A DNA stretch of 64,000 nucleotides from Escherichia coli (GTDB lineage Bacteria > Pseudomonadota > Gammaproteobacteria > Enterobacterales > Enterobacteriaceae), in the NCBI RefSeq assembly GCF_003334815.1, contig NZ_QOWO01000016.1. The stretch is one strand, 5' to 3'. This document shows, one piece after another, positions 50,492 to 52,104 of this stretch (position 1 is its first letter; each line of letters begins with the position of its first letter). A program made the translations under genes and the position numbers. A model generated the notes under the pieces. It made no database searches, had not been told where the DNA came from, and saw only the letters and a program-made list of their open reading frames with translations.

Positions 50492-50849
50492 AACCGCAGG
50501 CTCGTCGTATGCAAGAAAGTGCTGCGGCTGGCTGGTTAACTTCCGATAGTGAGAGTATTGAATGATTTCCAGTCGTTATCGATTTTACGTATTTTTTGCA
50601 TGAGATGATTTGAACGCCCTAGCACCAACCGTTCATGATTGCACGCCACTGTCTCTAGAACTGCTATGAGCATGAAGCCGCTGTTCAAACTAAGAATTTA
50701 TATGGCACTAACAGAAAAAATGTTACATATATGTTGAGCTTTAACGCAACATAGACATGTTCTATAGTTTGTGTCTCACCACCAGTTGAAAAAAAACGAA
50801 AATAGATTAACAATGTTCAGAAGAAACCTTCATAATAGAAGAGGTATAA

Positions 50850-51104
50850 ATGGGTAAGATTATTCGGTGGATGCTTTTTTTTGTCGGATTATTTTCCGTT
50901 GCATATTCAATATATAAATATCAACAATCTCCGCAGAGTTTATTTTACATAATCGGTGCTATAGGAACACTTTTATCTGCTACATGTGGTTTACTTGAGA
51001 TAAAAAGCAAGAAATCGAATGGCAGTATAACTGCTGGCGACAACTCAAATATCGTTGTCATTAATGGTTCAGAAAACACATCAAAAATAAAAAATAGAGG
51101 GTGA
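50850..51104 (+). CDS. Small two-pass membrane protein of unknown function (first gene of AT-rich cargo operon)
   Basis: 84 aa; two hydrophobic helices, then a GDNSNIVVINGSENT tail; GAGGT before ATG; stop overlaps the next start (ATGA). Confidence 0.5.
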   Translation: MGKIIRWMLFFVGLFSVAYSIYKYQQSPQSLFYIIGAIGTLLSATCGLLEIKSKKSNGSITAGDNSNIVVINGSENTSKIKNRG

Positions 51105-52042
51105 TTATGTTTGATAAAGAGGTTAACTTAGGAGACAACTCAAACGTAGTAAAAACAGAAGGGAATAACAACACAACAATAATAAATAATTTTGATGAGA
51201 AGTTTATAGGTCACGTTGTAAGATCCATGCTTTATGAAAGTATGCCTTCCTTTCAAGAAGAAGCTAGAAAAAAGATAATTGCGTCAACTGATGAATACAT
51301 TAGAGAGCTAATATCTGAGTTAGTAATTCAAAAAACAGATGCAGATACATTAAACCAAAAACTATCAACGCCTGACGTTCAATACTCTCTTTTTGAATCA
51401 GCTAAATGTTTTGCAAAAAATCCAGAAAGAACAGCAAAATCAACTCTGTTAAATTTAGTTGTAAAAAAAATAAATGAATTGGATGGAGATCATGAAGAGC
51501 TTTCCTCTATCGATCTGGCAATAAACGTCGCTACAAAACTTAGCGTAAAGCAAATAAGGTATATATCTTTAATATACTATATTAAAGATATTGTAAAAAT
51601 ATCACAAGATAGTGCCGGCGCTTATTGCATAATAGATCCTTCAAAAGATACAACAGAAGAAGTTGACGATTTCTTTTTATTCCCAAATGATATAAAAAGG
51701 AACAAGCAGGATGTTTATGATCTTTATATCGATCTATATAACAATCAAATGGATGTTGTATTTAAAGATGAAGAGATTGGCCCAGTTGATTATAGTATGC
51801 TTATAGCATTGGGTTGTATCATTCAACCTGCATTCCCTCAGCGAACATTTGTACAAAATGTAAAGAAAAGAACAGGATTAGATTTAAACGACAGCGAACA
51901 AAAATTAAAGCTATCGACATTCATTGAGAAAATAGAAAAAGCTATAGAGATAGATTCTGTCGATTATATAGTATTAACTACGGTTGGTAGACAAATAGCT
52001 AACGCCTATATATCAACAAGAATGAGATTAGTTAACTTATAA
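51101..52042 (+). CDS. Unknown 313 aa protein (second gene of AT-rich cargo operon; candidate defence/exclusion effector)
   Basis: Translationally coupled to the upstream small gene; N-terminus repeats the GDNSNVV...NNN motif; very AT-rich; no motif I recognise. Confidence 0.5.
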   Translation: MIMFDKEVNLGDNSNVVKTEGNNNTTIINNFDEKFIGHVVRSMLYESMPSFQEEARKKIIASTDEYIRELISELVIQKTDADTLNQKLSTPDVQYSLFESAKCFAKNPERTAKSTLLNLVVKKINELDGDHEELSSIDLAINVATKLSVKQIRYISLIYYIKDIVKISQDSAGAYCIIDPSKDTTEEVDDFFLFPNDIKRNKQDVYDLYIDLYNNQMDVVFKDEEIGPVDYSMLIALGCIIQPAFPQRTFVQNVKKRTGLDLNDSEQKLKLSTFIEKIEKAIEIDSVDYIVLTTVGRQIANAYISTRMRLVNL

Positions 52043-52104
52043 ATATCTCATATTTCTTCATCCAAGGTGGTGGCTTCATCATCCACCGCCTTCTTTTCTG
52101 CTCT

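Follow-up and report, generated by a model that had tools for sequence, protein, structure and literature searches.

The PD-T2-1 anti-phage cassette in an Escherichia coli prophage: a motif shared by its two proteins and a possible signalling mechanism

The stretch analysed here, referred to as the window, comprises 64,000 nucleotides (nt) of Escherichia coli DNA (assembly GCF_003334815.1, contig NZ_QOWO01000016.1). Its positions 50674..52108 on the (+) strand form a mobile cassette of about 1.4 kb that consists of a promoter region, two genes (A and B) and a terminator. Judged by protein identity, this cassette is in all probability PD-T2-1, the anti-phage defence system of E. coli ECOR03. 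The two encoded proteins share an Asn/Gly-rich motif of approximately 23 residues, which forms the C-terminal tail of A and the N-terminus of B and probably mediates either A–B or homotypic association. The shared motif is absent from the PD-T2-1 paper and, as far as the searchable literature shows, is unpublished. The cassette and its two genes, whose products are measured in amino acids (aa), are as follows.

50674..52108 (+): mobile PD-T2-1 cassette; 86–89% identical to two other copies, with homology ending at both borders, and low in GC
50850..51104 (+): PD-T2-1A, a small membrane protein of 84 aa and the proposed effector; 100% identical to WP_075861856.1
51107..52042 (+): PD-T2-1B, 311 aa, a member of the LPO_1073/Vpar_1526 family and the proposed sensor/regulator; 100% identical to WP_087894771.1, with a match to NF045477

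Identity with PD-T2-1 and published phenotype

Protein A of the window is identical at 84/84 residues to WP_075861856.1, a coding sequence (CDS) in NZ_CM128598.1 that RefSeq labels hypothetical, and protein B is identical at 311/311 residues to WP_087894771.1, encoded by the next CDS downstream. Nagy, Gersabeck, Conte & Whiteley (2025; bioRxiv 10.1101/2025.07.02.662641, PMC12236752) list WP_075861856.1 as ECOR03 PD-T2-1A. The accession printed there for PD-T2-1B, WP_08789477.1, is that of B minus one digit; RCR47253.1 follows RCR47252.1. The assignment to PD-T2-1 is made because both proteins are 100% identical.

Nagy et al. observed that transposon insertions in the PD-T2-1 operon rescue ECOR03 from the toxicity of T7 gp17. 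Furthermore, PD-T2-1 with its native promoter protected MG1655 more than 100-fold against T2 and T6 and approximately 10-fold against T4 and T5, and gave no protection against T7. Co-expression of T7 gp17, or of T2 gp37, gp34 or gp12, in each case stopped growth only when the operon was present. Nagy et al. suggest that fibres are sensed via a chaperone, describe sequence analysis as "largely uninformative" and give the mechanism as unknown. No further papers naming PD-T2-1 were found in the searched literature.

A previous reading of this DNA, made from the letters alone (the sequence-only reading), had proposed an acquired anti-phage module in which a membrane protein is coupled to a second protein, and the identity with PD-T2-1 bears this out. 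The same reading had called the system undescribed, which did not hold, as PD-T2-1 was published in July 2025. It had also offered superinfection exclusion as a mode of action, which is not what the published phenotype indicates: intracellular tail-fibre proteins provoke a growth arrest that resembles abortive infection (Abi). The defence function is thus experimentally established in published work, and as a system PD-T2-1 is already known. To this extent the present finding mainly confirms the context-based reasoning of the sequence-only reading, the most valuable part of which was the duplicated motif, PD-T2-1 having been published without a mechanism.

The shared motif and the two protein families

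Protein A contains two hydrophobic segments, in agreement with its earlier description as an 84-aa two-helix membrane protein, whereas Nagy et al. give A a single predicted transmembrane (TM) segment. The segments and the two copies of the motif, the second of which was also located with a hidden Markov model (HMM) of the B family, lie at the following positions.

50859..50915 (+): first hydrophobic (TM) segment of A, residues 4–22; Kyte–Doolittle value 1.66 in a 19-residue window
50940..50996 (+): second hydrophobic (TM) segment of A, residues 31–49, followed by KSKK; Kyte–Doolittle value 1.93, kept in all A homologues
51027..51095 (+): C-terminal motif of A, residues 60–82, ITAGDNSNIVVINGSENTSKIKN; top local alignment with B 6–28, conserved across the A family
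51122..51190 (+): N-terminal motif of B, residues 6–28, VNLGDNSNVVKTEGNNNTTIINN; found by alignment to the A tail and by the family motif HMM

The basic N-terminus of A and the KSKK sequence after its second segment predict an N-in/C-in two-helix hairpin with a cytoplasmic tail, in which the predicted periplasmic loop is short, at approximately 8 residues. No Pfam, PADLOC or NCBIfam family matched A above threshold, and no Pfam family matched it even at E ≤ 10. Homologues of A fall into 49 clusters of 62–112 aa from Enterobacterales and Commensalibacter, all of them unannotated. In the TM region of the A family, Pfam matches reflect only generic TM-helix similarity to membrane-protein families, and SLATT_1 matches are weak and confined to 3/42 members (E ~0.016).

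When A is aligned locally to full-length B, the top alignment places A 60–82 (ITAGDNSNIVVINGSENTSKIKN) on B 6–28 (VNLGDNSNVVKTEGNNNTTIINN) with a score of 60, which was reached by 0/2000 composition-preserving shuffles. The same tail-to-N-terminus alignment was the top local alignment in 9/9 A/B pairs tested, namely the window pair and eight others, among which are B proteins only 22–43% identical to that of the window. It stood clearly above chance in five of the nine pairs (0–9/2000 whole-A shuffles) and modestly so in the remaining four (29–144/2000). The two copies also match at the DNA level, with 32/57 positions identical, so that the duplication noted in the sequence-only reading, in protein and in DNA, is confirmed as exceeding chance. 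N, Q, G, S and T together make up 47–59% of the motifs, versus 25% of the rest of B.

A 23-position motif HMM was built from the aligned N-terminal segments of 140/142 B-family representatives, and this model, made from B-family N-termini alone, detects the A tails at the right residues. Read by eye, the recurring N-terminal pattern of the B family is roughly Q-x-x-G-D-N-S-x-A-I-Q-A-x-G-N, and in 70 of the 142 best B-family representatives a loose regular expression for the motif finds a match within the 40 aa that precede helix 1. At the equivalent place, a strict G-phi-Q-phi-G is found in 35/42 A-family tails; the tail of the commonest A subfamily (81 aa) is SQTIGDNSSGIQVGGNMTINEKDKK. Dyrka et al. 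(10.1101/2020.01.06.895854) describe G-phi-Q-phi-G as the core signature common to mammalian RHIM, fungal PP and bacterial BASS3.

Mimicry of a tail-fibre repeat by the GDNSN motif was considered and rejected at the sequence level, as the trigger proteins scored no better than controls. Neither the regular expression nor the 23-position HMM found anything in T7 gp17 or T2 gp12, gp34 and gp37, whose sequences came from the respective phage genome records, beyond what was found in the controls gp18, gp23, gp20 and gp17. The best E-values in this 12-sequence database were 0.38–12; the same HMM does detect the A tails.

Protein B has no hydrophobic segment as strong as those of A. It matches the NCBIfam model NF045477 with 85.9 bits (E = 3.4e-24; curated cut-off 45) in two stretches, the better of which spans only the N-terminal half of the model, and the identical RefSeq protein is named LPO_1073/Vpar_1526 family protein. 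Homologues of B at 34–90% identity are pre-annotated with the new Pfam family PF28206; B itself had no match in the Pfam-A copy searched. At E ≤ 0.1, B and A matched 0 families in PADLOC-DB v2.0.0, a database from 2023 that is older than PD-T2-1, and in PHROGs B matched only a family of unknown function. When 1.84 billion cluster representatives were searched with a profile, 711 relatives of B were returned at E ≤ 1e-3, each representing a 50%-identity cluster, and 88 at E ≤ 1e-10. Many B-family matches cover only the N-terminal half, and the C-terminal half of the family is variable. The sole paper found with the name LPO_1073 or Vpar_1526 lists Vpar_1526 in a Veillonella outer-membrane proteome.

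The AlphaFold2 (AF2) model of B has a predicted local distance difference test score (pLDDT) of 82.8 and a predicted template-modelling score (pTM) of 0.76. Its floppy N-terminal beta-hairpin at residues 14–26, which belongs to the motif and is modelled at low confidence, is followed by a helical lobe (residues 31–161), a small beta-sheet (residues 164–199) and a second helical lobe. No solved or viral fold matched this model, and the AFDB returned essentially only uncharacterised family members, one structural neighbour being labelled DUF4393 (Abi_alpha). Neither a catalytic motif nor an enzyme-like fold turned up in domain and structure searches of B, and no NTPase, repeat, TPR, GreA/B or PIN domain was found with Pfam. 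The large protein had previously been described as having no recognised motif, and the remote-homology and structure comparisons agree with that description, placing it in a family of no assigned function and no known fold.

The A and B genes are tightly coupled. Their junction reads AGA GGG TGA TT ATG, with a 2-nt spacer and a GAGGG Shine–Dalgarno sequence within the end of A. A mechanically defined GTG open reading frame (ORF) for B runs from 51101 to 52042 and encodes 313 aa; the true start is almost certainly the ATG at 51107, which gives 311 aa, and is favoured because RefSeq uses that start and homologues begin with MFDK. The 313-aa partner of the sequence-only reading therefore exists as a GTG ORF, but its length is probably 311 aa, and the ATGA overlap claimed for the two genes gives way to the TGA-TT-ATG spacer. 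A GTGA overlap arises only with the unlikely GTG start.

This coupling extends across the family. In 11/11 distinct loci that could be read with upstream sequence, an ORF for a 2-TM protein of 81–97 aa lies directly upstream of B, and the pairing holds down to 22% B identity. The genes are separated by a 2-nt spacer in the window; other pairs show 4-nt overlaps, other overlaps of 1–20 nt, or spacers of 2–11 nt.

A templated-motif model and its alternatives

It is proposed, at about even probability, that B is a sensor, that the shared beta-motif transmits its signal by templating, and that A is a membrane killer. B would be a soluble cytoplasmic LPO_1073/Vpar_1526 protein acting as sensor/regulator, and A would be the executioner, a hairpin of two helices in the inner membrane whose ends both face the cytoplasm. 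The two would communicate through the motif of approximately 23 residues, which is rich in Asn, Gly, Ser and Thr. Accumulating tail-fibre protein would be sensed by B, either directly or via a host chaperone, and B would then self-associate, its N-terminal motifs taking up a stacked beta (amyloid-like) conformation. The stacked B motifs would template the A tails, whereupon the TM hairpins would cluster and the membrane would be permeabilised or depolarised, resulting in abortive infection. Alternatively, unassembled chains of the trimeric beta-helix fibres might themselves nucleate the motif; triggering by four unrelated fibre proteins would then be explained.

The division of roles, with A as effector and B as sensor, is reasonably likely. 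It is proposed mainly because killing-type modules of relatives occupy the position of A relative to the motif. An extra N-terminal module ahead of the motif occurs in 7/142 B-family representatives: it is HNH-like in P0096 and P0157, Mrr-like in P0105, and composed of TM or coiled segments in P0048, P0091 and P0126. These six proteins match NF045477 over the whole or nearly the whole length of that model. Regarded separately, they are candidate single-chain defence proteins. In P0011, the seventh (404 aa, from a 1.6-kb Logan contig), an A-like 2-TM protein with a tail motif is fused to a B-like protein with its own motif; this one member from one contig could be a natural A–B fusion or a read-through or assembly artefact.

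That the A–B association is amyloid-like is more tentative, and is put forward by analogy. Templating is proposed because the layout is the genomic signature of HET-S/NWD2 and Bell/NLR pairs, and because a pair of this layout was recently shown to operate in Bab/Agp, a prophage-borne Abi system of E. coli.

Several observations weigh against this proposal. B has no NTPase or repeat domain and is thus not an NLR or STAND protein, and its fold has no characterised neighbour. The nuclease modules ahead of the motif are weakly matched: the HNH-like module of P0096 and P0157 shows a CxxC...H...N...HH pattern, with a Pfam HNH_2 match at E = 0.055, and the module of P0105 matches Mrr_cat at E = 0.017. 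The motif is kept in the all-in-one fusions. To our knowledge, the amyloid motif is absent from fungal all-in-one NLRs, and because the fusions here differ in retaining it, the motif may be a plain oligomerisation element. The PD-T2-1 branch itself carries NIVVING in place of G-phi-Q-phi-G. The Pfam amyloid-motif families (RHIM, Ses_B/PP and HET-s) matched neither A nor B, nor any of the 42 A-family and 142 B-family members, in a test that consisted of the Pfam models and did not include those of BASS1–11. Co-variation of the motifs within individual A/B pairs was looked for and rejected, the cross-pair score matrix having no dominant diagonal. Structure prediction adds little: AF2 renders the B motif as a low-confidence hairpin only, and a concatemer of six motifs (three A tails and three B N-termini joined by GS linkers), in which a beta-solenoid was sought, was uninformative at a pLDDT of 36. 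Nagy et al. obtained interface pTM (ipTM) values of ≤0.5 from AlphaFold for every combination of A, B and gp17, and the roles of A and B are not separated in their work.

The main rival is the release of A from static docking, which is unlikely but not negligible. According to this explanation, B would sit on the tail of A like an antitoxin, held by an ordinary beta-zipper, and fibre protein would bind or titrate B or its chaperone and so free A, with no templating or amyloid state. The adjacency, coupling and shared motif are accounted for equally well, and the 2-nt spacer and 4-nt overlaps are a tight coupling typical of toxin/antitoxin-like stoichiometric pairs. The simple beta-hairpin favoured by AF2 at B 14–26, the retention of the motif in all-in-one fusions and the unmatched Pfam amyloid families also fit static docking. 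However, the low ipTM values of Nagy et al. (≤0.5) provide no confident A:B interface, and the two motifs are homologous to one another and not complementary, as would suit homotypic stacking. Most A tails also have the G-phi-Q-phi-G core, a RHIM-type stacking signature. Moreover, the fused HNH, Mrr and TM variants cannot act via the physical release of an effector.

A second alternative, which is improbable, exchanges the roles: B would be the effector, acting for example on fibre assembly, chaperones or the envelope, and A would be only a membrane anchor or regulator that localises or gates B. B exceeds A in size and conservation, has a well-folded, two-lobed model, and has the AFDB neighbour labelled DUF4393 (Abi_alpha); the variable C-terminal half of its family would suit varied activities, or equally varied sensors. 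Set against this are the failure of the searches to turn up a catalytic motif or enzyme-like fold in B, and the location of the recognisable effector modules of its relatives, which lie N-terminal to the motif and not in the Vpar_1526 body. In addition, small 2-TM proteins such as SLATT are established Abi effectors.

Superinfection exclusion at the envelope, in which A would prevent the injection of DNA or the functioning of a receptor, with B as an accessory and no abortive infection, is highly improbable: Sie/Imm/Sp-type exclusion proteins are likewise small, inner-membrane and prophage-encoded, and protection does cover the T-even phages and T5, but plasmid-expressed fibre proteins inhibit growth in a PD-T2-1-dependent manner without infection, which points to intracellular sensing and toxicity, and a periplasmic loop of approximately 8 residues gives A little surface.

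If the templated-motif model is true, it would tie PD-T2-1 to Bab/Agp and to the amyloid-controlled cell death of fungi and animals. It is also conceivable, though doubtful, that pairs of a 2-TM mini-protein and a Vpar_1526 protein constitute a second, independent and far more widespread class of bacterial amyloid-type (templated beta-motif) signalling. Such a class would, with the same reservation, comprise a new motif family, GDNS-x-phi-x-phi-x-G (most members having the RHIM-like G-phi-Q-phi-G), a TM-hairpin effector and a receptor that is not an NLR and has a novel fold. The family extends to hundreds of 50%-identity clusters and is carried on P2-like, P4-like, lambdoid and SfII-like prophages.

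The remaining value of these results is mechanistic. The motif, the pairing down to 22% B identity, the RHIM-like core and the modules (HNH-like, Mrr-like or TM) that stand where A would be together yield a cheaply testable model. What is added beyond the PD-T2-1 paper includes the family membership of B, the presence of the cassette in P2-like, P4-like and SfII-like elements, and the shared motif. With B placed in a large uncharacterised family (NF045477/PF28206), members of that family could then be annotated as defence sensors.

Genomic context and comparison with known systems

The cassette of the window is 86–89% identical to two further copies, and the borders of this homology are sharp at 50674 and 52108. 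One copy lies in a P4-like satellite of Atlantibacter hermannii that carries Psu, Ogr/Delta and a D5-type primase (locus L002, 7566–9003), and the other in a P2-like prophage of Providencia, between the portal and gpA genes (locus L011, 7566–9002). In P2, the portal/gpA interval is the tin/old position, a recognised defence hotspot. In the window, the GC content is 0.30–0.35 over 50600–52000, compared with 0.47–0.59 in the phage genes to the left and approximately 0.54 in prfC to the right, as expected from the earlier description of an AT-rich block behind a Pin-like invertase. Promoter region, genes A and B, and terminator are all intact. Signals within the cassette and the genes on either side of it are listed below.

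50741..50768 (+): promoter-like site TTAACG-16 nt-TATAGT; 9/12 match, spacer containing AACATAGACATGTT, hexamers invariant in the three cassette copies
52064..52099 (+): terminator-like hairpin with a 10-bp stem and a 9-nt loop, followed by the T-rich CTTCTTTTCT; −15.8 kcal/mol, z = −3.7
49901..50491 (+): Pin/Gin-type invertase, left neighbour; the near-identical locus L001 gives it the annotation pinE, site-specific DNA recombinase
52111..52262 (−): truncated dinI-like gene, right neighbour and outside the system; its translation has no start codon, and the gene is intact in L001

The hairpin at 52064..52099 closes the unit, lies inside the conserved cassette, and was equalled in folding by 0/200 shuffles. 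An Rfam scan of 50300–54400 gave no match near the gathering score. Upstream of A, the palindrome AACATAGACATGTT at 50747–50760 falls within the spacer of the promoter-like site. When the 175 nt upstream of A were compared across the three cassette copies, the right arm of this palindrome was not kept in the Atlantibacter and Providencia copies, unlike both promoter-like hexamers. Promoter-like sites are no denser in the region than in shuffles (7 versus 8.3 expected). The sequence-only reading had suggested an operator at such ATGTT/AACAT palindromes; the sequence is present, but an operator was rejected on these two grounds, the idea being unsupported because the right arm is not conserved.

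Among 5426 complete E. coli genomes, the cassette occurs in four, in each case in the same prophage beside prfC. The prophage of the window is a myovirus of the SfI/SfII/SfIV-like kind that shows 97% identity to vB_EcoM-689R6 across 82% of window 26000–50500, and the cassette occupies the right end of this prophage, adjoining prfC. E. coli 510016 (locus L017, NZ_CP025851.1; 2101–4777) carries in the same slot a reverse transcriptase and a SLATT gene split by IS1A, which is a different, inactivated defence cargo. Because of this cargo, the slot is regarded as a genuine cargo or defence slot; together with the copies in P2-like and P4-like elements, it supports the earlier proposal of an invertase-distal cargo hotspot.

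Close relatives of the cassette were found neither in the genome-contig collection nor among isolated phages. Elsewhere they comprise one viral contig, a 4.1-kb fragment of the same prophage, and, among plasmids, two Pantoea megaplasmids. The close PD-T2-1 subfamily is rare. Lambdoid prophages of Klebsiella, Enterobacter and another enterobacterium carry more distant A+B pairs, placed antisense in the interval from the lysis genes to the small terminase gene, and further such pairs lie in small chromosomal islets. A distinct subfamily at this antisense position in lambdoid prophages of Klebsiella, Enterobacter and relatives (L023, 4759–5909; L027/L028, 6001–7196; L029/L030, 6001–7148) has a B of 301 or 302 aa and an A of 81 or 96 aa with the tail SQTIGDNSSGIQVGGN; by sequence, these loci are candidate PD-T2-1-like systems with the RHIM-like core.

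Directly upstream of this fibre-triggered system, at 47687..49910, are the tail-fibre and fibre-assembly genes of the prophage itself, with a segment whose inversion is controlled by Pin. Their presence beside PD-T2-1 poses the question of how lytic growth escapes self-triggering.

Downstream of the cassette, the window contains a helix-turn-helix (HTH) repressor (52446..52805, +) and an ImmA/IrrE Zn-metallopeptidase with the HEXXH sequence AHELGH (52814..53335, +), which match PADLOC capH at 3.6e-10 and capP at 4.9e-11, respectively. The pair lies between the truncated dinI (52111–52262) and an intact dinI (53881..54129). It is missing from the four complete PD-T2-1 genomes and is present beside other cargo in E. 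coli 510016; on that pattern of occurrence, a fixed link to PD-T2-1 was rejected, and the pair looks like an independent module. The segment that separates the ImmA-like gene from the intact dinI (53336..53880, approximately 550 bp) has no ORF of note and is also unannotated in E. coli 510016, and a search against Rfam gave no match: the best hit, CssrB, scored 23 bits, below its gathering score of 76.

Two further similarities concern the junction itself. The 100 nt after pin (50489–50590) share 93% identity with the spacer adjoining the intact dinI of E. coli 510016. In the window dinI is duplicated, with 52111–52241 being 85% identical to the intact copy, and homology to L001 ends at 52241. 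It seems that an ancestral pin–spacer–dinI junction was opened repeatedly by cargo insertion or recombination.

Among known systems and families, B belongs to LPO_1073/Vpar_1526 (NF045477; PF28206), a family with no assigned function. Protein A resembles SLATT and the other small 2-TM effectors of CBASS and retron systems in being a short two-helix membrane protein and a presumed Abi killing module, but it is approximately half the size of a SLATT domain and lacks a nucleotide-signalling partner.

The HET-S/NWD2 pair and the Bell/NLR pairs of BASS1–10 likewise have the motif at the C-terminus of an effector and at the N-terminus of an adjacent receptor (Dyrka et al. 2020, 10.1101/2020.01.06.895854). 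They also share the gene order, with the small effector gene first and the two genes co-oriented and closely spaced or overlapping, and the existence of all-in-one fusions. They differ in their components, as B is not an NLR or STAND protein and A has neither a Bell nor a HeLo domain. BASS1–10 are found mainly in multicellular Actinobacteria and Cyanobacteria (10.1101/2020.01.06.895854), whereas the PD-T2-1-type family is found in Enterobacterales and on phages. Furthermore, in contrast to the amyloid pairs, no Pfam amyloid motif model matched here, and the fused Vpar_1526 forms keep the motif.

Bab/Agp (BASS11) of E. coli ECOR25 is an amyloid-signalling Abi system located in prophage hotspots (Ibarlosa et al. 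2024, 10.1101/2024.11.07.622273). The likeness to PD-T2-1 lies in the adjacent genes, the prophage defence hotspots and the Abi-type outcome, and in the pairing of a small protein (approximately 100 aa), which has a hydrophobic N-terminal part and a C-terminal motif of approximately 20–25 aa, with a large partner that bears a homologous motif at its N-terminus. The sequences themselves are unrelated: Bab/Agp combines the TPR-GreA/B-C-PIN sensor Agp with a Bell-like effector, whereas PD-T2-1 combines a 311-aa Vpar_1526 protein with no Pfam domain and an 84-aa 2-TM protein. Amyloid behaviour has been demonstrated for BASS11, while the resemblance of PD-T2-1 to it is one of analogous architecture, drawn from sequence only.

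In comparison with PD-T2-1 of ECOR03, the window differs in what follows the cassette, namely the 1.6-kb HTH and ImmA/IrrE block that the four complete-genome copies of PD-T2-1 lack. The functional unit is not different, consisting of the same proteins (100% identical) in the same two-gene layout.

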